Of a stretch of DNA of 64,000 bases, positions 5,071 through 58,945 are shown in pieces. Positions within the stretch are counted from its first letter, which is position 1, and every line of letters starts with the position of its first letter. The notes under the pieces were generated by a model that did not search any database, had not been told where the DNA came from, and saw only the letters and a program-made list of their open reading frames with translations. This DNA comes from Patescibacteria group bacterium (GTDB lineage Bacteria > Patescibacteriota > Minisyncoccia > Minisyncoccales > Staskawiczbacteraceae): positions 35,693-99,692 of the forward strand of contig JBBTQL010000004.1 in NCBI GenBank assembly GCA_038065715.1, in the 5' to 3' direction. Made by a program: the position numbers and the translations under genes.

Positions 5071-6084
5071 TTAAATTAATGGACTTTGATTGTTCTTTGG
5101 TTTAAGCCCAAAATGTTCATAGGCAAGTTTTGAGGCGACTCTGCCCTTTGGAGTTCTTTCAATAAAACCGCATTGCATCAAATAGGGTTCGTAAATATCT
5201 AAAATAGAATCTTCTTCTTCCATGGCAGCAGCCGACAAAGATTGAAGCCCCACTGGACCGCCGTTAAATTTTTCTATCAAAGCTTTTAATATAGATCTGT
5301 CGCTGGAATCTAACCCCATTTTATCCACTTCTAAAGAATTTAGCGCATCATTTGCAATTTCTTTTGTGATAAATCCATCACTTTTAACTTCTGCAAAATC
5401 TCTAACTCTTTTAAAAAGTCGGTTGGCAACCCTTGGAGTAAAACGAGACCTCTTTGCTATAATTTTTACGGCTTCTGGCTCAATCCCCACATTTAAAATT
5501 TTTCCTGACCTTTCAATTATTTTTTCAATATCTTCATTTGAGTAAAAATTTAATTGAAAAGTCGCGCCAAAGCGATTTCTTAAGGGCGAGGACAAAAGCC
5601 CGGGCCTTGTTGTGGCTCCAATCATTGTAAAATGAGGCAACTTTAATTCCATTGTTCTTGCCATAGGTCCTTTGCCTAAAATTAAATTAAGCTTGTACTC
5701 TTCCATGGCAGGATATAAATATTCTTCAACCGTTTTATTTATTCTATGTATTTCATCTAAAAACAAAACATCGCCTTCTGATAAATTAGTTAGAATTGCC
5801 GCCAAATCTCCGGCTCTTTCTACGGCAGGGCCCGAAGTCACCCTAATGGACTTGCCCATTTCATTGGCAACTAAATATGCCAGCGTGGTTTTTCCTAATC
5901 CAGAGTTCCCATAAAATAATAAATGGTCAGGCGACTGGCTTCTTTTTTTTGCCGCTGTTATTATTATCCTGATATTTTCTTTGATTTTTTCCTGGCCCAC
6001 ATACTCTTGCCAGTTTTTTGGTCGCAAAGCAGAATCCAGCGCGTTATCGTCATTGTTTATTTTTTCTGGTAAAACTCTTGACAT
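5071..6084 (-). CDS. ruvB: Holliday junction branch migration helicase RuvB
   Basis: 337 aa. Walker A GNSGLGKTTLA and Walker B LFLDEIHR; full-length RuvB-like organisation. Confidence 0.95.
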   Translation of the reverse strand: MSRVLPEKINNDDNALDSALRPKNWQEYVGQEKIKENIRIIITAAKKRSQSPDHLLFYGNSGLGKTTLAYLVANEMGKSIRVTSGPAVERAGDLAAILTNLSEGDVLFLDEIHRINKTVEEYLYPAMEEYKLNLILGKGPMARTMELKLPHFTMIGATTRPGLLSSPLRNRFGATFQLNFYSNEDIEKIIERSGKILNVGIEPEAVKIIAKRSRFTPRVANRLFKRVRDFAEVKSDGFITKEIANDALNSLEVDKMGLDSSDRSILKALIEKFNGGPVGLQSLSAAAMEEEDSILDIYEPYLMQCGFIERTPKGRVASKLAYEHFGLKPKNNQSPLI

Positions 6085-7913: not shown

Positions 7914-8748
7914 TTTTATTAAAAATATTATTTTTTATTTCTTTTAAGTCGGCTCCCGTTTTCATTAAAAGCCCGGCAGTTTCAAAAATTTCCTGCGTTG
8001 TTTTTGAATTTCCAAAATTTTCTGTGTAAATTGCCAGTCCTGCCAAAAAGCAGTTGGCAGCCTGTTTTTTTACCCCGTTAGAAAGCCCATCTTTTGAGGG
8101 TTCCTTATTGGATGGGTCGTATGGCCCCGGTTGCTCAAGCTTTCTATCGGGGTTTACAAGATTTAACGCCATCTCTGACAAAGAATAATCTCTTATTATG
8201 TTTATTCTACCAAAGTTTTGGTTTTTTGTCCCGACTTCGTCGAGGATGCTCGATGGCGAAGCCATCGGCACACTTTCACTATCTATATTTAAAATAAGAG
8301 AATCCAGTAAAAACCCATAAGAGTTAAGCTTGCCAGCCAATTCAGTTTTAAAATCTTTTATTCCTAAAGTTATTGTAAGGTCTGGTTTTGTTTCTGAAAA
8401 ATAAAATAAGAGGTTTTCTTTTTTTATATTTCCCCTGTCAATCATTAAATGAATTTTTAATCCTTCTTCATTTTTTTCGTAGTAAACCTGCGAGATTTCA
8501 GCTGTTTTTTGAGGAATTGAAATCACAAAGTTTTTTGGATATGAAATATGGCCTAAGCTAGGCAATAAAAATCGAAATTTTTCTGGAAATTCTTCTATTA
8601 TTAAGTTTACATTTTTATTTAATTCTTTTAAAGTATAAAAAAGAGCCAAAGCAACTGGAATGCTTTCGCCATTTGGGTTATCATTTGGAATAATGCAGAT
8701 ATTTTTTGCTTCAGAAATTAATTGCTTTGCTTCTTGCGGTATTTCCAT
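7906..8748 (-). CDS. Hypothetical protein with a degenerate DHH/NrnA-like N-terminal region
   Basis: 280 aa. ICIIPNDNPNGESIPVALALFYTLKELNKNV resembles the DHH motif region, but the catalytic His/Asp are replaced. Carries GC-rich insert A1. Confidence 0.45.
   Translation of the reverse strand: MEIPQEAKQLISEAKNICIIPNDNPNGESIPVALALFYTLKELNKNVNLIIEEFPEKFRFLLPSLGHISYPKNFVISIPQKTAEISQVYYEKNEEGLKIHLMIDRGNIKKENLLFYFSETKPDLTITLGIKDFKTELAGKLNSYGFLLDSLILNIDSESVPMASPSSILDEVGTKNQNFGRINIIRDYSLSEMALNLVNPDRKLEQPGPYDPSNKEPSKDGLSNGVKKQAANCFLAGLAIYTENFGNSKTTQEIFETAGLLMKTGADLKEIKNNIFNKNE
8228..8271. repeat. GC-rich palindromic insert family A, copy A1 (in frame in CDS 7906-8748)
   Basis: GTCCCGACTTCGTCGAGGATGCTCGATGGCGAAGCCATCGGCAC encodes ..PMASPSSILDEVG.. 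on the minus strand. Related to copies at 21287, 41150 and 61452. Confidence 0.75.
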
Positions 8749-8805: not shown

Positions 8806-9312
8806 ATGAGAAATAAAATTATAACAAAAAGTTTTAAAGAAACTCAAAAAATTGGCGAGAAATTGGCAGATGAAATTTTGAAATTACTGCCGCAAAAAAG
8901 CGCAATAATTTTAGGTTTGAACGGAAACCTTGGGGGAGGCAAAACAACCTTCTTGCAAGGTTTTGCAAAAGGGCTGGGAATTAAAGAAAAAATATTAAGC
9001 CCCACCTTTGTAATTTACAAAAAGTTTATTATTTCACCAATACTTATAAATAAGCGTACGCAGAATTTGGAGTATCGCCAATTTTATCACTTTGATTGCT
9101 ATCGCATAAAAAATTACAAAGACTTTTTGGCGATAGGATTTTCCGCCCAAGGCGGACCAGCCTCGGGCTGGAAAGAAATAATTTCAAACCCAAAAAATAT
9201 TGTGGCAATTGAATGGCCAGAAAAAATTAAAAAGATTTTTCCAAAAACTGCCGTAAAGATAAATTTTAAATTTATCAACGAAAGCGCAAGAGAGTTGACA
9301 ATTAATAAATAA
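8806..9312 (+). CDS. tsaE: tRNA t6A biosynthesis ATPase TsaE
   Basis: P-loop GNLGGGKTTFLQGFAKGLGI, SPTF and YHFDCYRI motifs. ATG 8806 preferred over the TTG at 8797 in the track. Confidence 0.85.
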   Translation: MRNKIITKSFKETQKIGEKLADEILKLLPQKSAIILGLNGNLGGGKTTFLQGFAKGLGIKEKILSPTFVIYKKFIISPILINKRTQNLEYRQFYHFDCYRIKNYKDFLAIGFSAQGGPASGWKEIISNPKNIVAIEWPEKIKKIFPKTAVKINFKFINESARELTINK

Positions 9313-21181: not shown

Positions 21182-21787
21182 ATGATAGCATTTTTATCGG
21201 GTAAAATTTTATTAAAAAAGGACAAGTTTATCATTCTTGAAGCAGCTGGCGTTGGCTACAAAGTTTTTTTAAATCAGCAAACCCTATCCCGACTCGATCG
21301 AGGATCCTCGACGACTTCGTCGTCGGGATTAAAATTATCAGAAATAGGGCAGGATGTAAAGCTATTTTGCTTCCAAAATATAAAAGAAGATGCTTCGGAT
21401 TTATATGGGTTTTTAAGTTATGACGAGCTTGATTTTTTTGAGGTGCTAAACGATATTCATGGCGTAGGGCCAAAAGCTGCTTTGGAAATTTCTGTGTTAG
21501 GCCCCTTAGAAAAAATTAAGGACAGAATTTTAGCGCAGGACGAAAAAATATTTGAAGGAATTCCCGGAATTGGTTCAAAAAGGGCGTCGTCAATTATTTT
21601 AGAATTGACCGGAAAAATAATGGCGAAGTCCGCCTTTGCTAAAGCTTCGCCAGACGAAGCAGAAACCGCTTTAACCCAGCTTGGTTTTTCAAAACAGCAA
21701 GCAAAGGATGCCCTGGCTCGCGTGCCTGTTGCTGTTAAAAATTCTGAAGACAGAATAAAATTAGCGCTTAAAAATTTAGGAAAATAA
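21182..21787 (+). CDS. ruvA: Holliday junction DNA helicase RuvA
   Basis: MIAFLSGKI start and HhH motifs GVGPKAALEI and IPGIGSKRASSIILEL. ATG 21182 preferred over the upstream alternative start. Confidence 0.85.
   Translation: MIAFLSGKILLKKDKFIILEAAGVGYKVFLNQQTLSRLDRGSSTTSSSGLKLSEIGQDVKLFCFQNIKEDASDLYGFLSYDELDFFEVLNDIHGVGPKAALEISVLGPLEKIKDRILAQDEKIFEGIPGIGSKRASSIILELTGKIMAKSAFAKASPDEAETALTQLGFSKQQAKDALARVPVAVKNSEDRIKLALKNLGK
21287..21329. repeat. GC-rich palindromic insert family A, copy A2 (in frame in ruvA)
   Basis: ATCCCGACTCGATCGAGGATCCTCGACGACTTCGTCGTCGGGAT has perfect 8-bp termini. Encodes LSRLDRGSSTTSSSGL. Confidence 0.75.
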
Positions 21788-22788: not shown

Positions 22789-24039
22789 ATGAGGATAAAA
22801 GAAGCAGTTAAAAAAATATTAGGCAGAAATTTGTTGGGTTTTTATCATTATGGCATGGCTTTTTTGGGAGCTGTGATTTTTGGTTTTCCATCTAAAAATT
22901 TAACTGTTATAGGGGTTACAGGCACCAGCGGTAAATCAACTACTTCTGATTTTATCACAAGAATTTTAGAAGAACCCTTCGACGGGGCCCAGGGCAGGTC
23001 TGGCAATAAGGTGGCTTCAATTTCAACAATAAGATTTAAAATTGCAGAAAAAGAATGGGAAAATAAATATAAAATGACAATGCCCGGCCGTTTTGTTATT
23101 CAAAAGTTTTTAAGGCAGGCAAAAAAAGCAGGATGCAAATTTGTGGTTTTAGAAGTTACTTCGCAAGGCATTGAACAATATCGCCATAAATTTATAAATT
23201 TTGATACAGCTGTTTTTACTAATTTGTCGCCAGAGCATATTGAAAGCCATGGCAGTTTTGAAAATTACAGAAACGCAAAACTAAAACTATTTCGAGCAAC
23301 AAAAAACATCCATATTATAAATACTGATGACGCAAATTCAAAATATTTTTGGAATATTCCGGCAAAACAAAAAATTGGATTTTCAGCCAAAGATGCGCAA
23401 AACGCTAATTTAAAATTAAATTTAATTGGAGACTTTAATATTTTAAACGCCTTAGCGGCAATTTCTGCGGCAAAGGCATATGGCATTGATTTTAGCATTT
23501 GTAAAAGGGCGCTGGAAAAGGCCAAAGGAATTTCTGGCAGAATGGAAGTGATTCAAAAAGAGCCATTCAAAGTTATTGTTGACTATGCTCATACTCCAGA
23601 ACAACTCGAAAGTGTCTATAAGGCACTTTCTCAAAACCCAAAACCTCAAACTCCAAACCCCAAACTTATTTGTGTGCTTGGAAGTTGCGGCGGGGGAAGG
23701 GATAAATGGAAAAGGACTGTTTTAGGAGAAATTGCAAATAAATATTGCGACAAAATATTTATAACCAATGAAGATCCATATGATGAAAACCCCAACCAGA
23801 TTTTATCTGAAATAAAATCTGGAATTATCAATTCTCAATTTCCAATTTCCAATTTATATGAAATTTTAGACCGTAAAGAGGCAATTAAAACTGCAATAAA
23901 ATTAGCAAAATCAGATGATATTGTTATAATCACTGGCAAGGGTTCAGAATCCTGGATGTGCATAGCAAACGGTAAAAAAATCCCCTGGGACGACAGGCAA
24001 ATCGCTAAAGATGCGTTGGGGCTCCAAACCTTGACATAG
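22789..24039 (+). CDS. murE: Mur ligase, MurE-like UDP-MurNAc-tripeptide synthetase
   Basis: GVTGTSGKSTT P-loop, DYAHTP and GSCGGGRDKWKR. Carries in-frame repeat inserts at 22975-23004, 23630-23667 and 23835-23856. Confidence 0.8.
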   Translation: MRIKEAVKKILGRNLLGFYHYGMAFLGAVIFGFPSKNLTVIGVTGTSGKSTTSDFITRILEEPFDGAQGRSGNKVASISTIRFKIAEKEWENKYKMTMPGRFVIQKFLRQAKKAGCKFVVLEVTSQGIEQYRHKFINFDTAVFTNLSPEHIESHGSFENYRNAKLKLFRATKNIHIINTDDANSKYFWNIPAKQKIGFSAKDAQNANLKLNLIGDFNILNALAAISAAKAYGIDFSICKRALEKAKGISGRMEVIQKEPFKVIVDYAHTPEQLESVYKALSQNPKPQTPNPKLICVLGSCGGGRDKWKRTVLGEIANKYCDKIFITNEDPYDENPNQILSEIKSGIINSQFPISNLYEILDRKEAIKTAIKLAKSDDIVIITGKGSESWMCIANGKKIPWDDRQIAKDALGLQTLT

Positions 24040-24059
24040 ATGCTTTAATATGATATGAT
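24031..24059 (+). promoter_or_regulatory. Promoter of DGR-1 target gene
   Basis: TTGACA, 17 nt (TAGATGCTTTAATATGA), then TATGAT, with a TG-extended -10. Nearly identical to the promoter at 61997-62025. Confidence 0.65.
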
Positions 24060-24097
24060 TAATAATATAGCTCTTTTTTATTGTTACTTGCGAAATT

Positions 24098-24153
24098 GGC
24101 AGTTATAGCCAAAAGCTACTGAATTATATCGGTATCTTCTGGCTATGACTGCT
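24098..24153 (+). promoter_or_regulatory. Conserved 5' leader hairpin of DGR target mRNA (copy 1)
   Basis: 13-bp stem GGCAGTTATAGCC / GGCTATGACTGCT. The same stem occurs at 62068-62150 with A-U to G-U compatible changes and a larger loop. Confidence 0.6.
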
Positions 24154-24218
24154 ATGTCGGTACGTCAAGCAGAAACCAGCCTGTCATAATTGGCGGGCAA
24201 AACAGAAAGGAGATTGTC

Positions 24219-24878
24219 ATGGCTGTGCAAGTCATTGGCGATCTATATGTGGAGTTGGATGGGAAGTTGGCGGAGATTAAGCGGCAAATGAGGCAGCAGG
24301 GAGGCTATCCGTTTGACCCGGAGAAATTAAACAAGTTTCTCCAACTAGCTGTCGAGGGCAGGTTCAACGACAACCGGTGCTGGTGCGAGAAGGAAGGAGT
24401 GATCTACTTTGAGGTCACCTCTGACGGCACGACTGGACCCCAATGGATTGAGCGTCTGGAGAAGAAGGGTATCCAGCTCTCCAAGTGGGCCAAGGACGTC
24501 CTGCTGTCTCCGGACTTCAAGCCGACCAACGGCGTGACCACCGAGATCGCTGTCCTCAAGGGCGCGCTTTTTATGGACAATGATCGCATCACGTCTAAGA
24601 TCCGCGCTGAGGCCGACAAGCGCAAGCTCGTCAAGCCCGAAGCCGAACTCGGTTGCCTTATCCGCGACACGTTCACGGACGAGGAAATCGAAGCCATGGG
24701 TCTTGTGTGGATCGTGGCGTTCCACGAGCCCATCAAGGACTCTGACGGCGATCCGACGTTGCTCGGTGCGCGTCGCCTTGGCGATGGCCGTTGGCTGCGC
24801 GCGTGCTGCGGCCTGCCCGACCGCAGGTGGCTTCGCGACCGTGGCTTTGCCTTCGCCGTCTCGCAAGTATCTTCGTAA
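24219..24878 (+). CDS. DGR-1 variable (target) protein with C-terminal VR, no signal peptide
   Basis: 219 aa; RBS AAAGGAG before the ATG. Sampled 60-nt lines are about 60-65% GC versus about 30% for the genome. The C-terminal 42 codons are the VR. Confidence 0.85.
   Translation: MAVQVIGDLYVELDGKLAEIKRQMRQQGGYPFDPEKLNKFLQLAVEGRFNDNRCWCEKEGVIYFEVTSDGTTGPQWIERLEKKGIQLSKWAKDVLLSPDFKPTNGVTTEIAVLKGALFMDNDRITSKIRAEADKRKLVKPEAELGCLIRDTFTDEEIEAMGLVWIVAFHEPIKDSDGDPTLLGARRLGDGRWLRACCGLPDRRWLRDRGFAFAVSQVSS
24741..24866 (+). repeat. Variable repeat VR-1
   Basis: Gap-free 126-nt alignment with TR-1. There are 21 substitutions opposite TR adenines and one C/G difference; the last 25 nt are identical. Confidence 0.9.
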
Positions 24879-24974
24879 GTCCTTTGGGCTTGAGCCTTTG
24901 CTCTAGCCCTTGGATCCTCTGCCCTTTGCATTTCCTCACGGACTTGCACTGGGCAGATTTTTTTTGCTAAAATA

Positions 24975-25334
24975 TAAATGGTAATAGGTGAATCTTGCGG
25001 GAGATCAAGGTTTCCCGCGGCCGAATCCAGTATTCGTATGCTGAGAGCGTTTGCGATTAAGGTTGCAAACGGAGGGCATACGAATTACTTTCAAAAAAGA
25101 AGATACTTGGCGTGGGAAACTAGGGCATTACGATGCCGAATTCGATACAGCCCTGTGATCGTAAAACTACTTCAAGGGGCAGTGGCATAGATGGTTTCTT
25201 GCGTATTTCTGACGGCGATCCGAACTTGCTCAGTGCGAATCGCAATGACGATGGCCATTGGCTGAACGCGTACTACGACAAGCCCGACAACAGGTGGAAT
25301 CGCGACAATGGCTTTGCCTTCGCCGTCTCGCAAC
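24975..25334 (+). ncRNA. Putative DGR-1 template RNA (structured 5' region plus TR)
   Basis: Candidate promoter TTGCAC-18-TAAAAT (TG-extended) near 24940-24972. Extended hairpin at 25029-25089 and blocks conserved with locus 2 up to 14 nt before TR. Transcript ends are not determined. Confidence 0.5.
25209..25334 (+). repeat. Template repeat TR-1 (noncoding)
   Basis: Copy of the VR with A at 21 variable positions, mostly in AAC/AAT codons of the VR frame. No RBS or start codon. Confidence 0.9.
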
Positions 25335-25339
25335 TCTCT

Positions 25340-25699
25340 TCATTTCTCTCCTTGCTTAGGAGAGTTTTGTTTAATAATTTGTCCCGACCAACCACCGAGC
25401 ATTTTGCCAATTTCATCTAGTTTCAATGATAGAGCAATATATTTTTTGTTATCCAATGATTTTGTTTCCCAAAGAATCATTAAAAATATTTTTAACGTAT
25501 CGACCTTTCTAATTGCTAAACGTACATAGGACAATTTTTCTGATTGCCCAAGAAAACTTGCAGTCACTATTGCCTCTATTGCTTCAACAAAAAGTTTATC
25601 AATTTTTTCACCAAGAGAATATTTATGTATTTTTGGTATAATTAAATAGTGTTGGTACCAAAAAAGATAAGCTTCTTTCAACTTTTGCAAAACAGGCAA
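25340..25699 (-). CDS. avd: DGR accessory variability determinant (Avd-like four-helix-bundle protein)
   Basis: About 119 aa from a TTG start (LPVLQKLKEAYLFWYQ...). Homologous to the 122-aa ORF at 63274-63642. Helical pattern with C-terminal IGKMLGGW. The track ORF extends further upstream (25834), probably spuriously. Confidence 0.8.
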   Translation of the reverse strand: MPVLQKLKEAYLFWYQHYLIIPKIHKYSLGEKIDKLFVEAIEAIVTASFLGQSEKLSYVRLAIRKVDTLKIFLMILWETKSLDNKKYIALSLKLDEIGKMLGGWSGQIIKQNSPKQGEK

Positions 25700-25705
25700 C
25701 AGTCT

Positions 25706-25715
25706 GGGGGGGGGG
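25706..25715. repeat. Homopolymeric G10 tract in the avd/RT divergent gap
   Basis: G10 lies 6 nt from the avd TTG start and 24 nt before the RT ATG. The paralogous position in DGR-2 has G7. Confidence 0.9.
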
Positions 25716-38037: not shown

Positions 38038-38054
38038 TTGTATTTATTATTTTA

Positions 38055-38403
38055 GTGGAAGCGCCGGGGTCGAACCCGGGTCCAGAAATTTTTTAAAAAT
38101 AAATCTACAAATTTATCTTGCTTTGTTGTTTGGATATTAAATAAGAAGCAAGAAAAATGTTTAATATCCTAATTCTCGTAAATCTCGACAGTTCCCCGAG
38201 AAATAAAACTGCCTATCCTGAAAATATAACACCCTCGGTCCATTTATCAGGAGTCAATGGCGAGGATGCAGCATTAAGCTAAAGCTAGTGCTGGTTGCCT
38301 ATTAAATAAATTAGCAATTATGTTTTTTCTATAAGTTTAACCAGGTTATAGAAAACTGGATTTGCATATTTTTAATGAAACATCTGTCAAAACTTACGCT
38401 CCC
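38055..38403 (-). ncRNA. ssrA: tmRNA (SsrA)
   Basis: 5' GGGAGCG pairs with 3' CGCTTCC-A, including a G3:U pair. T-arm GGACCCGGGTTCGACCCCGG. Tag frame GCT AAT ... GCT TAA predicts ANLFNRQPALALA. Adjacent to smpB. Confidence 0.85.
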
Positions 38404-39830: not shown

Positions 39831-41482
39831 TAAAAGAAGAAATAAAAAAAATAGTGGAAAACTCAATTAAAAACCTGCAAAAACAGGGCGCATTTTTAAA
39901 ATTAAAAATGCCAGAAATTTTAATTGAGCGGCCTAAAGAAAAAATACGCGGTGACTATTCAACCAACATTGCCTTTGTAATTGGAAAAGATGTTTTGAAA
40001 AATCCATTTGAAACGGCATTGCTTTTGAAAACAGAAATTGTCTCGCTTTGCGAGATCTCGCGCAGCGAGAAAAAACAAAAATCTGTAATAGAAAAAGTTG
40101 AGGTAGTGGGAGGGTTTATTAATTTTTTTGTTGCTGACGATTATTTTAAAAATCAGCTGCAAATTATTTTAAAACAAAAAAACAAATTTGGAGATTTAAA
40201 ACTTGGTAAAAGTCAAAAAGTAAACATAGAATTTATTTCTGCAAATCCAACAGGGCCGTTAACTTTAGGAAACGGCAGAGGAGGATTTTGTGGCGATGTT
40301 TTGGCTAATGTTTTAGAAAAAGCAGGATATAAAGTTGAAAGAGAATATTATATTAACAATACCGGAGCTCAAATTAAAAAACTTGGGCATTCTGTAATTG
40401 GAGATGCAGAAGCTGTTTACAAAGGAAAATATATTATTGATTTAAGAAACAAAGTTAAGGGAGATGACCCCGAGAAAGTTGGAGAAAAATCGGCAAAAAT
40501 TATTTTAGAAAAAATGATAAAGCCGTCTGTAAAAAAAATGGGAATTAAATTTGACACATGGTTTTCAGAAAAAACTCTCTATAAAAATAAAGAAGTAGAT
40601 AAAACAATACAAGAATTGGCTAAAAAAGGGTTCACCTATGAAAGCGAAGACGCTGTGTGGTTTAAATCTAAAGAATTGGGCGATGACAAAGACAGGGTTT
40701 TGGTGAGAGCCGACGGAATTAAAACATATTTTGCTTCAGATATTGCTTATTTTAAAAATAAATTTAAAAGAGGGTTTGGTAAACTTATTATGTTTTTGGG
40801 AGCCGACCACTATGGATATGTTCCGAGGCTAAAAGCTGCCTCGCTTGCTTTTGGTTTTAAAAAAGACAGTATTGATGCTATTGTTATGCAGTTGGTGCGG
40901 CTTTATGAAAAAGGCAAAGAAGTAAGAATGGCAAAAAGGACTGGTATTTATGTAACAATAGATGAGTTAATTGGCGAGGTTAGTTTGGATGTTGCCAGAT
41001 TTTTCTTTTTAATGATAAGCCCTAATACCCACATGAATTTTAATTTGGATTTAGCAAAAGAAAAATCAGAGAAAAATCCGGTTTTTAAAGTGCAATATGC
41101 GCATGCCCGAATTTGCTCAATTTTCCGAAAATTTGGAAATTTCAAATTTTCCCGATTTCATCGAGGATCCTCAATGGCAAAGCCATCGGGACAAATTTCA
41201 AATTTAAAATTATTAAATGAGCCGAGCGAGTTAGGGTTAATTAGAGAATTAATTAAACTTCCAGAAATTATTGAAGAGATAGCTAAAGATTATCAAGTTC
41301 AAAGACTACCGCAATACGCAATGGATTTAACTGATGCATTCCATAGATTTTATGAAAACTGTAAAGTCCTGAGCGAAGTCGAAGGATTGCGTGATGCCCG
41401 CTTGTCTCTTGTTATGGCAACAAAAATTGTTTTAAAAAATACATTAGACTTAATGGGAATATCTGCTCCTGAAAAAATGTGA
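39827..41482 (+). CDS. argS: Arginine--tRNA ligase
   Basis: 551 aa with SANPTGPLTLGNGRG and VQYAHARICS; ends in M. Carries inserts at 40049-40078, 41137-41205 and 41368-41392. Confidence 0.95.
   Translation: MIKEEIKKIVENSIKNLQKQGAFLKLKMPEILIERPKEKIRGDYSTNIAFVIGKDVLKNPFETALLLKTEIVSLCEISRSEKKQKSVIEKVEVVGGFINFFVADDYFKNQLQIILKQKNKFGDLKLGKSQKVNIEFISANPTGPLTLGNGRGGFCGDVLANVLEKAGYKVEREYYINNTGAQIKKLGHSVIGDAEAVYKGKYIIDLRNKVKGDDPEKVGEKSAKIILEKMIKPSVKKMGIKFDTWFSEKTLYKNKEVDKTIQELAKKGFTYESEDAVWFKSKELGDDKDRVLVRADGIKTYFASDIAYFKNKFKRGFGKLIMFLGADHYGYVPRLKAASLAFGFKKDSIDAIVMQLVRLYEKGKEVRMAKRTGIYVTIDELIGEVSLDVARFFFLMISPNTHMNFNLDLAKEKSEKNPVFKVQYAHARICSIFRKFGNFKFSRFHRGSSMAKPSGQISNLKLLNEPSELGLIRELIKLPEIIEEIAKDYQVQRLPQYAMDLTDAFHRFYENCKVLSEVEGLRDARLSLVMATKIVLKNTLDLMGISAPEKM
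41137..41205 (+). repeat. Composite insert in argS: family A copy A3 nested within an AAATTTC heptamer repeat
   Basis: AAATTTCAAATTT (41137-41149), then TCCCGATTTCATCGAGGATCCTCAATGGCAAAGCCATCGGGAC, then AAATTTCAAATTT (41193-41205). Encodes GNFKFSRFHRGSSMAKPSGQISNLK. Confidence 0.8.
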
Positions 41483-53335: not shown

Positions 53336-54607
53336 ATGTATAAAAAAACAACATTAAAAAACGGATTAAGGGTGATAACAATTCCAATGGAAAACGCCAA
53401 TAGTGTTACTGTTTTAATCTTGGTTGGCACAGGTTCAAAATATGAAACAAAAGACATAAACGGCATTTCTCATTTTTTAGAACATATGTTTTTTAAAGGC
53501 ACTGAAAAAAGGCCAACCACTTTAAAAATTGCCGAAACCTTAGATATGGTTGGCGGCGAATATAATGCTTTCACATCAAAAGAAATTACTGGATTTTGGG
53601 CTAAAGTAGATAAAAAACACACAGATGTTGCTTTAGACTGGATATCTGATATGTTTTTAAATTCTAAATTTGACGAAAAAGAAATAGAAAGAGAAAAAGG
53701 AGTAATAATAGAAGAGGTAAATATGTATTTAGACACCCCAATGGCCTATGTTGGAGAATTATGGGAAGATTTGCTTTACAAAGACCAGCCGGCCGGCTGG
53801 CGGGTTATAGGCGAAAAAGAAAACATACTGAACTTTAACAGAAAAAAAATTATAAATTATTATAAAAATCATTATTCGCCAAAAAATACAATAATTTGCG
53901 TGTCGGGAGGCATTGAGCAAGATAAAATTGCATCAAAAATACAGAGTTATTTTTCCCCCTTCGGGGGATCCGCCGTAGGCGGAAAAGTTAAAGTAAAAGA
54001 ATACCAAAAAGAGCCTGAAATATTGTTTCACCATAAAAAAACAGACCAGACCCATTTTTGTTTAGGGGTAAGGGCATACGATATGTTTCATCAGCAAAAA
54101 TATGCTTTGGTTTTACTGGCTATTATTTTGGGGGGAAACATGAGCTCGCGTCTTTTTATTAAAGTAAGGGAAAGAAGCGGTTTGGCTTATTCTATTCACA
54201 CATCTGTTGACGCTTCTACTGACACCGGATATTTGGTCACGCAAGCTGGAATTGACCATAAAAATTTAGAAAAATCAGTAAAGCTTATTTTACAGGAATA
54301 TAAAAACATTAAAGATACAAAAATTACAGAAAGAGAATTGCAAAAGGCAAAAGATTATTTAAAGGGAACTATGTCTTTGTCTTTAGATTCGTCAGACAGC
54401 CAAGCTTCTTTTTATGCCGTGCAAGAATTGCTTGAAAAGGAAGTTTTATCTCCTGAAGAAAAGTTTAAAAAAATTGACACAGTTTCTGTAAATGATATAA
54501 AAAAGGTAGCAGAGGATATATTTTTACCAGAAAAGTTGAATTTGGCAGTTATCGGCCCGTTTGAAGAAAATAAAAAAGAAGAGTTTAAAAAAATACTAAA
54601 AATATGA
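53336..54607 (+). CDS. M16-family zinc peptidase
   Basis: HFLEHMFFKGT (HxxEH). In-frame double tetraloop-hairpin insert at 53955-53983. Confidence 0.9.
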   Translation: MYKKTTLKNGLRVITIPMENANSVTVLILVGTGSKYETKDINGISHFLEHMFFKGTEKRPTTLKIAETLDMVGGEYNAFTSKEITGFWAKVDKKHTDVALDWISDMFLNSKFDEKEIEREKGVIIEEVNMYLDTPMAYVGELWEDLLYKDQPAGWRVIGEKENILNFNRKKIINYYKNHYSPKNTIICVSGGIEQDKIASKIQSYFSPFGGSAVGGKVKVKEYQKEPEILFHHKKTDQTHFCLGVRAYDMFHQQKYALVLLAIILGGNMSSRLFIKVRERSGLAYSIHTSVDASTDTGYLVTQAGIDHKNLEKSVKLILQEYKNIKDTKITERELQKAKDYLKGTMSLSLDSSDSQASFYAVQELLEKEVLSPEEKFKKIDTVSVNDIKKVAEDIFLPEKLNLAVIGPFEENKKEEFKKILKI

Positions 54608-58036: not shown

Positions 58037-58945
58037 ATGATTATTGATACACATTCTCATTTAAGTTTTAAGGCATATGATAGCGATAGAGATGAGGTTA
58101 TAAAACGCACTCAAAAAGAGGGTGTTGTTTGTATTGATGTTGGCACAAAATATGAAACAAGCAAAAGGGCAGTTGAATTAGCAGAAAAATATGAAAATAT
58201 ATATGCAGCCGTTGGAATGCATCCAATTCATATAAAAACAGATTTATTAAAATTAAAATTAGACAAAGAAGAGGGCGCATTTGCTCCGCTTGGCGAAGAG
58301 TTTGATAAAGCGAAATACAGAGAACTTGTTATAAATAGTGAAAAAAAAGCCGAAGGTCCTAACTCGAGAAGGACCGAAGGCTCTGAGGAGCTAAAGCGAC
58401 GAAGAGTGGTAGCGGTTGGTGAAATTGGATTAGACTATTATTATAAGCCAAAAGGAACAGCTAAAAAAGAACAATTTAAAGAAAAACAAAAACAAGTTTT
58501 TTTACAGCAATTAGAATTGGCAGAAGAATTAAATTTACCGGTAATTGTTCATTGCAGAATGGCGCATCAGGATGTTATAGAAATTTTGAAAAATAAAAAT
58601 GTTGAAGGAGTTATTCATTGTTTCACAGGAAATTGGGAAGAAGCGCAAAAATATATAGATTTAGGATTTTATATTGGCTTAAACGGAATTATTTTTTCTG
58701 CCCTAGGCAGACCCGCCTCGGGCGGGAAATTACCGCTAGATGATGTTGTTACGCAGTGTCCCCTAGATAAAATTTTAACAGAAACAGATTGCCCATATTT
58801 AACACCCTTGCAGGAAAACGGAAAAAGAAACGAACCGATTTTTGTAAAACACGTTATTCAAAAAATCGCTGACTTAAAAAGTGTTAGTTTCGCCGAAGTT
58901 GCCGACAAAACTACCCAAAACGCCAAAAAATTATTTAATATTTAA
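58037..58945 (+). CDS. tatD: TatD-family metal-dependent hydrolase
   Basis: MIIDTHSHL; 302 aa. Inflated by GC-rich inserts at about 58343-58400 and 58712-58726. Confidence 0.9.
   Translation: MIIDTHSHLSFKAYDSDRDEVIKRTQKEGVVCIDVGTKYETSKRAVELAEKYENIYAAVGMHPIHIKTDLLKLKLDKEEGAFAPLGEEFDKAKYRELVINSEKKAEGPNSRRTEGSEELKRRRVVAVGEIGLDYYYKPKGTAKKEQFKEKQKQVFLQQLELAEELNLPVIVHCRMAHQDVIEILKNKNVEGVIHCFTGNWEEAQKYIDLGFYIGLNGIIFSALGRPASGGKLPLDDVVTQCPLDKILTETDCPYLTPLQENGKRNEPIFVKHVIQKIADLKSVSFAEVADKTTQNAKKLFNI

Follow-up and report, generated by a model that had tools for sequence, protein, structure and literature searches.

A modular promoter and stem-loop leader upstream of variable-protein genes in the Candidate Phyla Radiation, a candidate cis-acting mRNA element

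Leader hairpins of the E. coli pnp, rnc and adhE mRNAs, as well as sites in phages T7 and lambda, are processed by RNase III. In adhE-type leaders, cleavage removes a 5´ segment that occludes the ribosome binding site (RBS), and processing can leave a protective terminal hairpin. Other stem-loops, such as those in the ompA 5´ untranslated region (5´ UTR) and in the Bacillus subtilis aprE or ermC leaders, are stabilizers placed at the extreme 5´ end of the mRNA. Here we describe a leader that combines a promoter with a long stem-loop, found upstream of two target genes of diversity-generating retroelements (DGRs) on contig JBBTQL010000004.1 of a Patescibacteria group bacterium, a member of the Candidate Phyla Radiation (CPR); the window, meaning the whole stretch of DNA that was analysed, is 64 kb long. 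DGRs are unusually abundant in the CPR, whose members are mostly uncultured, and to our knowledge almost nothing is known about the expression or regulation of DGR variable proteins, least of all in this group.

As in the RNase III-processed leaders, a strong promoter and the RBS are separated by a stem-loop of 20 bp or more. Unlike them, the element has a stem sequence, two wobble pairs and an A·C mismatch that are conserved across lineages, none of which RNase III alone would need, and it is present in multiple copies tied to one gene family. With translational operators (ribosomal-protein leaders, phage MS2, T4 regA-type), the element shares a 5´ UTR helix conserved in sequence and structure, through which one factor could control several mRNAs, and conserved non-Watson-Crick pairs that would act as identity elements. 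Those operators usually overlap the Shine-Dalgarno (SD) sequence or the start codon, whereas the hairpin here ends 40-70 nt upstream. As with the 5´ stabilizers, a 5´ UTR hairpin could prolong the life of the mRNA of a highly transcribed gene, but the helix here starts at about +40 and would be 5´-terminal only after processing. In DGRs, target recognition reportedly uses an initiation of mutagenic homing (IMH) sequence and a GC-rich hairpin or cruciform at the 3´ end of the variable repeat (VR), which are said to act on DNA and to be needed for homing. Our hairpin is likewise physically associated with DGR target genes, but it lies in the 5´ UTR about 590 nt 5´ of the VR, shows the strand asymmetry of an RNA, is lacking at most sister DGRs, and also occurs where no DGR is nearby. 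Finally, the leader resembles both the RNA motifs that flank the template repeat (TR) or the reverse transcriptase (RT) gene, thought to serve reverse transcription (Weinberg et al., 2017; PMC5737381), and a hairpin found 5´ of the TR in this clade, in that all are structured RNAs of DGR loci found by comparison. Unlike the motifs of that study, none of which matched the window in the Rfam scan, the leader hairpin would be carried on a separate target-gene transcript.

In the whole window, Rfam 15 recognized only a tmRNA. When the cutoff was relaxed to E values up to 10, the leader regions gave hits of 13-17 bits, no better than chance where the thresholds are 47-100, and the 13 related loci scanned, with leaders of the type described here (type A) or of two further types (B and C), gave tRNAs only. 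No such leader is described in the DGR, CPR and structured-RNA literature that we searched, apart from a passing mention that Paul et al. (2017), on CPR DGRs, may contain. We class the element as a cis-regulatory leader hairpin that is new in its sequence family and in the genes with which it is associated. The first-pass annotation, made from the letters of the window, knew of no such leader among described DGR components, and our searches support it on this point. We put at roughly 60% the probability of the following reading: the element is a cis-acting mRNA leader composed of a modular promoter and a 5´ UTR stem-loop, which is shuffled as a module among the CPR variable-protein genes and acts post-transcriptionally through a trans-acting factor that reads double-stranded RNA (dsRNA).

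The evidence for an RNA comes from comparison. An RT scan with one genome per species gave 80 loci (L001-L080) from Patescibacteria (CPR) metagenome-assembled genomes (MAGs) and closely similar unclassified MAGs, with RTs 54-74% identical. Using blastn and then the covariance models (CMs) R1 (6 copies) and R2 (12 copies), we found the hairpin 5´ of the target in 15 of the 49 related loci that have a complete target and 200 nt or more of upstream sequence; each time it is on the sense strand and directly precedes the gene. A scan of metagenome contigs with an exact pattern found at least 120 copies, numbered here as loci L081-L200, whose source samples include Hainich, Rifle and lake sediments. 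The total is at least 137 (at least 135 beyond the window), spread over many CPR lineages; the metagenomic subset counts below come from the matches listed. The same kind of scan of viral contigs found no hairpin. The specificity of the CMs was assessed on 780 kb of related genomic loci, 490 kb of metagenomic loci and the whole window, where R2 with filters off found the two known copies only. All significant hits were sense-strand and 5´ of a target-family gene or of a gene with the same N-terminal module, with a few downstream open reading frames (ORFs) unclassified.

Because the metagenome search pattern fixes much of the stem (the mid-stem), covariation is judged from the 12 divergent genomic copies and, in the larger set, from the free positions. 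Among the 12 divergent copies, standard pairs make up 96% of cells, and compensatory changes on both sides are seen in 14 of 21 pairs, a level reached in 0 of 500 shuffles; sliding the partner by 1-3 columns lowers pairing to 30-45%. Aligned to the model, the 91 distinct metagenomic copies among the matches listed have 97.4% of cells paired, and the pair that is free of the pattern constraint (columns 12/123) is C-G in 43 and U-A in 42, with 4 exceptions. In these 91 copies G·U cells number 240 and A·C cells 18, which identifies the folded strand as the sense, mRNA-like strand. The leader is selected as sense-strand RNA. Every one of the 107 distinct hairpins has 20-35 bp (median 23; median ΔG -30 kcal/mol), and thus reaches the length of an RNase III substrate (at least 20 bp, about two turns). 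Within the helix, the G-C and C-G pairs of AUAGC/GCUAU are invariant in the divergent copies, an A-U pair and a G·U wobble are kept in AAAG/YUUU (the wobble in 83 of the 91 listed copies), a U·G wobble is kept in the apical ACUGA/UCGGU (68 of 91), and there is usually one A·C mismatch.

These data bear on two explanations that would deprive the RNA of a role. The window copies stand in paralogous cassettes whose RTs are 78% identical, as expected if the hairpin had no function of its own and had hitch-hiked through recent duplication or horizontal transfer of cassettes. Such an account is scarcely credible in view of at least 137 copies over many CPR lineages, with compensatory change in two thirds of the pairs, and of a helix kept while the flanking and coding sequence diverged beyond recognition; a recent segmental duplication, which the first-pass annotation had held open as the sole source of the similarity, fails on this number of copies. 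Equally improbable is the variant in which the element is a leader-peptide device. An ATG in the 3´ arm does open short ORFs starting MTAM or MTAI in several copies, and, as the annotation had noted, in locus 1 it begins a 14-codon upstream ORF (uORF; MTAMSVRQAETSLS, from 24145), the same ATG (62142) being in frame with the target in locus 2. However, this ATG lies inside the stem and has no SD sequence, is ACG in locus L075, and leads into ORFs that range from 8-14 codons to fusion with the gene. In-frame fusion occurs in about 15 of 120 listed copies, roughly the chance expectation (~0.13), and we rejected a leader peptide. The earlier argument for conservation at the level of RNA rather than peptide was therefore sound, given the strong covariation, the excess of G·U over A·C and the lack of uORF conservation.

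A function in DNA, either as the operator of a dimeric repressor or as a single-stranded DNA or cruciform (attC-like) recombination site for module exchange, would fit the mosaic loci, in which leader, N-terminal module, C-type lectin (CLec) domain and RT recombine independently, and also the conservation of both arm sequences and the tolerance of apical insertions. We nonetheless consider it very unlikely. The arms are 30 to more than 57 nt apart, which is unfit for a dimeric operator, the inner stem covaries freely without sequence conservation, and the excess of G·U over A·C makes the folded strand that of the transcribed 5´ UTR. Without exception, the element sits close to the promoter of genes of a single family. 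An integron attC-like site was rejected on the grounds that the element always has a consensus promoter on one side and a gene start on the other and that the flanking genes checked are housekeeping genes. The immediate flanks of the two cassettes (Mur ligase, RuvA, UvrB, a NIF3-family protein, LeuRS) include no recombinase; only these flanks were examined, and an integrase was not searched for genome-wide.

The two window copies show how the leader is built. Their parts, including the predicted promoters, are as follows.

24031-24059, + strand: locus 1 promoter; TTGACA (24031-24036), 17-nt spacer with TG, TATGAT (24054-24059)
24069-24093, + strand: locus 1 5´-proximal leader; pyrimidine box AGCTCTTTTTT (24069-24079) and TACTTGCGA box (24085-24093)
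24098-24153, + strand: locus 1 leader hairpin; 56 nt, 23 bp, ΔG -31 kcal/mol, apical loop AAUUAU; CM R2 73 bits, E 1e-17
24158-24174, + strand: locus 1 3´ flank box, CGGTACGTCAAGCAGAA
24179-24221, + strand: locus 1 gene-proximal module; small hairpin GCCTGTCA/TGGCGGGC (24179-24198), SD sequence GAAAGGAGA (24205-24213), start codon (24219-24221)
61998-62026, + strand: locus 2 promoter; TTGACA (61998-62003), 17 nt, TATGAT (62021-62026)
62036-62063, + strand: locus 2 5´-proximal leader; AGCTCTTTTT (62036-62045) and TACTTGCAA (62055-62063)
62068-62150, + strand: locus 2 leader hairpin; 83 nt, 32 bp, ΔG -37.5 kcal/mol; CM R2 69 bits
62153-62170, + strand: locus 2 3´ flank box, GGTAGTAGTCAAGCGAAA
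62170-62204, + strand: locus 2 gene-proximal module; ATGGTG...CACCAT helix enclosing a purine-rich RBS, start codon (62202-62204)

By blastn, cassettes 1 and 2 align in four regions only: the leader, a short element 5´ of the TR, part of avd, and the RT. The leader alignment comprises 24031-24123 with 61998-62093 (78%, E 4e-17) and 24128-24175 with 62125-62170 (87.5%, E 4e-10), and the target coding regions, from leader to TR, do not align. A conserved 20-mer and 25-mer occur at the two leader sites only (0 expected in shuffles), and the leaders fold more stably than shuffled sequences (z = -6.0 for locus 1 and -4.5 for locus 2). Both promoters match the sigma-70 consensus at 11 of 12 positions and carry the extended TG; the -35 element of locus 1 adjoins the stop codon of the upstream Mur-ligase gene, and the promoter of locus 2 overlaps the end of leuS. 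The sequence TAATAATA(T/C)AGCTCTTTTT is common to both leaders, and the 5´-proximal boxes of locus 1 are kept in locus 2 and in many metagenomic copies.

The homologous regions, promoters, shared boxes and stem arms of the first-pass annotation all lie where it had placed them. Its 13-bp stem is present, with arms GGCAGTTATAGCC (24098-24110) and GGCTATGACTGCT (24141-24153) in locus 1 and AGCGGTTATAGCC (62068-62080) and GGCTATGACTGCT (62138-62150) in locus 2; the arm differences are wobble-compatible and the arms are 30 and 57 nt apart, as it had described. What it took for a loop is not one, as the helix runs on to 23 bp in locus 1 and to 32 bp in locus 2, where a GC-rich apical extension (~62086-62125) is stacked on the same basal and middle stem. 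We rejected the idea that this extension is a copy of a dispersed repeat, since the window has no second copy. UAUGUCGG (locus 1) and UAUGGUAG (locus 2) come directly after the 3´ arm of the hairpin, and in locus 1 the GGUACGUC of the flank box repeats the first part of the 5´ arm, directly but imperfectly, and could pair with GACUGC of the 3´ arm. The gene-proximal helix of locus 2 is homologous to that of locus L075, with a compensatory change from GGUG/CACC to GGCG/CGCC.

The same architecture recurs in the larger set. Among the listed metagenomic copies, the promoter matches at 10 or more of 12 positions in 88 of 104 and at all 12 in 41, while none of 104 shuffled controls exceeds 10 of 12. 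The distance from the end of the -10 element to the hairpin has a median of 47 nt in the listed copies, and that from the hairpin to the SD-preceded ATG a median of 54 nt. The segment of about 40 nt after the promoter contains one of two alternative boxes, followed by TACTTGCGA; the box is either TAGCACATTTACA or AG(C/T)TCTTT, the form that both window copies have. Judged by these matches, a near-consensus sigma-70 promoter would give rise to a 5´ UTR of about 150-180 nt, whose stem-loop of 20-35 bp would start about 40 nt after the transcription start and end about 40-70 nt before the start codon. The hairpin also corrects gene calls that start inside it or just past it. For target 2, the public call (P0121, 223 aa) starts 17 codons upstream of the SD-preceded 62202, at the ATG just past the hairpin (62151-62201), and is probably an annotation artefact.

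What might such a hairpin do? With 40-70 nt between its end and the start codon, and with no U-tract after it, the hairpin is neither a terminator nor a direct sequestor of the SD sequence; an intrinsic terminator or attenuator was also rejected on the terminator scan, which flags nothing on the + strand here. Having one helix only, with the conserved positions in pairs, it does not resemble a ligand-binding aptamer, and a riboswitch aptamer was rejected for this unbranched form, with invariant positions paired and an apical part variable in length and sequence. Recognition by a trans-acting factor is suggested instead by the combination of conserved sequence and wobble pairs in a helix of at least two turns, the tolerated apical insertions and the multiple copies per genome. 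We propose that the hairpin would be the recognition site of a dsRNA-reading factor, either a sequence-specific RNA-binding protein or RNase III, so that all genes that carry it could be controlled together.

In locus 1 the leader offers a possible path from recognition to translation, which is the version we favour. In its minimum free energy (MFE) fold, CUCUUUUUU of the pyrimidine box is paired with AGAAAGGAG of the SD region. This pairing of the 5´ box with the SD region, with the hairpin holding the two together, may occlude translation; cleavage or binding of the hairpin would then uncouple the 5´ box and open the RBS. By analogy with the E. coli and phage leaders, the 3´ arm and the GGYRGUC flank could at that point form a small 5´-terminal hairpin, which might stabilize the processed mRNA. 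Across the listed copies, the 5´ box/SD duplex has an energy of -8.3 kcal/mol, compared with -6.8 ± 0.4 kcal/mol for shuffled 5´ segments, an effect driven by copies with the pyrimidine box. The GGYRGUC flank, a repeat of the start of the 5´ arm about 7 nt past the hairpin, is found in about half of the copies and could pair with the end of the 3´ arm. A helix of at least 6 of 7 bp is possible in 51 of 105 listed copies, with a preferred spacing of 7 nt and a mean of 5.49 of 7 bp against 4.91 ± 0.07 when shuffled, and its partner pairs are A:U in 17, G:C in 20, G:U in 11 and A:C in none.

These same features could be read as a conformational RNA switch, riboswitch-like or thermosensing, in which the base of the hairpin alternates with the 3´-arm/flank helix or with the 5´-box/SD helix. 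The enrichment of the 6-7 bp helix UGACURC/GGYRGUC, free of A:C partners, and the complementarity of the 5´ pyrimidine box to the SD region speak for it. The main helix, however, with at least 20 bp and about -30 kcal/mol, would overwhelm an unaided alternative of 6-7 bp; the conserved nucleotides are mostly paired, with no multi-helix junction and no conserved unpaired pocket, and only about half of the copies have the flank box. For an expression platform, we found no U-tract after the hairpin, the weak 3´-arm/flank helix in those 51 of 105 copies and the 5´-box/SD pairing in a subset. We regard a switch as unlikely.

Several points weigh against the reading of the hairpin as a leader read in trans. 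The transcription start site and transcript boundaries are predicted from consensus matches. The hairpin is unbranched, lacks an obvious ligand pocket and is not overlapped by an expression platform. The anti-SD pairing is clear in locus 1 but does not appear in the MFE fold of locus 2, nor in copies with the alternative TAGCACATTTACA box. The flank helix is short and confined to about half of the copies, and its apparent covariation could reflect shared ancestry. The metagenomic covariation is informative at the free positions only, as the pattern fixes much of the stem. Double-stranded RNA is no general requirement of the target genes, because leaders without the hairpin are not enriched in long hairpins: the 34 leaders of other types have a median of 12 bp against 13 bp in 111 control upstream regions (p = 0.37), and we rejected the idea that these leaders require a long hairpin of whatever kind. 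As for RNase III as the factor, its candidacy draws on helix length and on the E. coli and phage analogy.

The genes that follow the hairpin indicate to what it belongs. The 64-kb window, which is AT-rich (~33% GC), holds two complete paralogous DGR cassettes rather than one DGR with two targets.

24219-24878, + strand: target gene 1 (variable protein), 219 aa; N-terminal helical module and CLec-like domain
24741-24874, in target gene 1: VR1
24919-24965, + strand: terminator-like stem CTGCCC...GGGCAG followed by T8, as read from the sequence
25208-25341, + strand: TR1, 82% identical to VR1
25343-25699, - strand: avd 1 (bAvd gene)
25740-26726, + strand: DGR reverse transcriptase 1 (RVT_1)
62202-62822, + strand: target gene 2 (variable protein), 206 aa
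62704-62820, in target gene 2: VR2
63165-63281, + strand: TR2
63277-63642, - strand: avd 2 (bAvd-like)
63688-64000, + strand: DGR reverse transcriptase 2, cut by the window end

Both cassettes qualify as DGRs by their RVT_1 and bAvd domains and by VR/TR identities of 82% and 79%, and the equivalent VR/TR pairs of 59 related loci have adenine-biased mismatches (0.83-1.0). The DNA homology of cassette 2 to cassette 1 (78%) begins at 63626, with ATG 63688 as the counterpart of the RT1 ATG at 25740. Housekeeping genes flank both, with the Mur ligase 5´ of cassette 1 and LeuRS 5´ of cassette 2.

The target proteins are built as mosaics: a helical module of some 45 aa at the N terminus is joined to a C-terminal domain of some 155 aa, in which the VR lies. 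The C-terminal domain of target 1 matches locus L075, as do the N-terminal module and the RBS module of target 2. The two window proteins have no detectable sequence relationship to each other (nothing by BLASTP; 3-4% probability by hhalign), no Pfam domain and no PDB sequence match, and we rejected sequence homology after BLASTP, two hhalign runs, and Pfam and PDB sequence searches were all negative. They share a fold only, that of C-type lectins, where modelled; to call them unrelated, as the first-pass annotation did, is correct for the sequences but not for the fold. Both families are large (1647 and 84 database clusters) and all members are annotated as hypothetical.

As a mechanistic part of the DGR, the hairpin would mark the target for the RT-Avd complex or aid cDNA homing or target recognition, the last of which the first-pass annotation had proposed as an alternative to expression control. 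Several observations favour such a role: the hairpin was first seen before two DGR targets, among the 32 listed metagenomic copies with at least 2.6 kb downstream an RT is present in 18 (nearly all ~1.5 kb downstream) and an adenine-biased TR-like repeat in 13, and at locus L108, where one RT is flanked by two targets with products 77% identical, each target has its own hairpin (5750-5827 and 9121-9201). We find this role highly improbable, and the proposal is not supported by the wider comparison. The hairpin ends at 24153 and 62150, whereas VR1 and VR2 start at 24741 and 62704, which is the wrong place for an IMH and 3´ hairpin. Only 15 of the 49 sister cassettes carry it, and 14 of the 32 listed copies have neither RT nor TR nearby, their neighbours being GroEL, serine hydroxymethyltransferase (SHMT), a ZIP transporter, an IS200-type transposase and similar genes. 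One variant precedes a gene for an Hpt-domain protein. An element of the DGR template RNA was also rejected, as the leader lies about 1.1 kb 5´ of the TR, with the target coding sequence and the terminator-like stem and T8 in between. The terminator scan missed this stem because of its long loop; if functional, it would separate the target transcript from the TR unit, and TGCTAAAAT (24965-24973), which shares the last T of the run, resembles an extended -10 element that could serve the TR. The copies without a DGR nearby might be remote targets of a DGR elsewhere in their own genomes.

The hairpin instead follows a gene family. In about 85% of the listed copies, the ORF after it encodes a 190-240-aa relative of the DGR target proteins, and this association, together with the orphan copies and the other leaders at sister DGRs, makes a role in target recognition unlikely. 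Other leaders, including at least two further conserved types, are found in 34 of the 49 sister cassettes. One protein subfamily occurs with different leader types, and the hairpin leader is common to two families of C-terminal domain with unrelated sequences. When loci are compared by RT similarity, leader types cluster only in part: the nearest RT neighbour is also type A for 8 of 16 type-A loci, on which ground we rejected strict inheritance of the leader with the RT. In the leader variant of L085 (1109-1615) and L178, the downstream gene encodes a 168-aa protein in which the shared N-terminal helical module is joined to an Hpt domain (PF01627, 38 bits) in place of the lectin domain, a fusion that hints at a link between the N-module family and signalling. 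The loci thus give evidence of an assembly from parts that can be exchanged independently of one another: promoter-leader, N-terminal module, CLec domain and TR-avd-RT. As an expression module that can be shuffled, the leader is a part of the variable-protein gene family and not of the retrohoming machinery. The earlier picture of a conserved promoter with a structured leader therefore stands, except that the module is not DGR-specific.

In a bolder version of the trans-factor reading, CPR bacteria would have a post-transcriptional regulon dedicated to their variable, hypermutated ligand-binding proteins, with the hairpin as its operator. A sequence-specific RNA-binding factor would read the invariant G-C/C-G, G·U and U·G features and may be DGR-encoded (for example, Avd) or a CPR-specific protein, with type B and C leaders as parallel channels. 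We offer this as a tentative idea, possible rather than probable. If true, the regulon would couple every variable-protein paralogue, DGR-linked or orphan, to one signal. In any case, the leader RNA is a searchable marker for the variable-protein family, including orphan members that DGR-finding pipelines miss, and it provides a concrete element for experimental work.

Two other conserved, structured leader types were seen just 5´ of DGR target start codons in the same clade, neither of them in Rfam. Type B stands 5´ of the target start in L003, L006, L015, L018, L028, L055, L057 and L077 and has the form GGCAAGCCTGGGG-[hairpin]-TGAGGGGYGAGCCA. Type C, found in L010, L025, L065 and many of L084-L130, consists of CCCCAYAACCTCGGGMAGAGGRAA followed by a small hairpin and an SD sequence, and often comes after a type-A hairpin within one leader.

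A separate conserved hairpin lies directly 5´ of the TR (25148-25200 and 63103-63151), with the form GATACAGYYYY-GAGAGTATTCAA-RRRRCAGTGGCATAGATGG. It occupies the same position in nearly all of L001-L080, with compensatory YYYY/RRRR stem changes across about 60 loci of any leader type, and probably serves the DGR template RNA of this CPR clade as a structural element. The 5´ arm of the leader hairpin (GGCAGT.ATAGCC) resembles GGCAGTGGCATAGATGG of this pre-TR element; we rejected a link between the two, as the pre-TR hairpin is kept in nearly all loci examined whatever the leader type.

The cassettes have further features of their own. The target genes have about 50-52% GC against about 33% for the genome, forming a sharp island that coincides with the variable-protein ORFs and the TR (24001-25000 and 62001-63000). 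The avd gene lies on the strand opposite TR and RT, within the TR-RT spacer (25343-25699 and 63277-63642), so that any TR-to-RT transcript would be antisense to avd, and TR and avd overlap at their 3´ ends. Between the avd and RT starts there is a poly-G tract of 10 G (25706-25715) in cassette 1 and 7 G (63649-63655) in cassette 2, embedded in a conserved GCAACAGTCTGGGG...ATTA, which makes it a candidate slipped-strand, phase-variable tract.

Elsewhere in the window, the tmRNA gene is at 38053-38403 on the - strand (Rfam RF00023, 112 bits). There are also two small families of dispersed GC-rich double mini-hairpin repeats, such as TTTTCCGCCCAAGGCGGACCAGCCTCGGGC, some of them within ORFs: one at 9139-9168, 29277-29306, 53951-53980 and 58694-58723, the other at 8229-8270, 21287-21328 and 41150-41191. 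These may be elements like repetitive extragenic palindromes (REP) or miniature inverted-repeat transposable elements (MITE), or may encode a repeated peptide motif.

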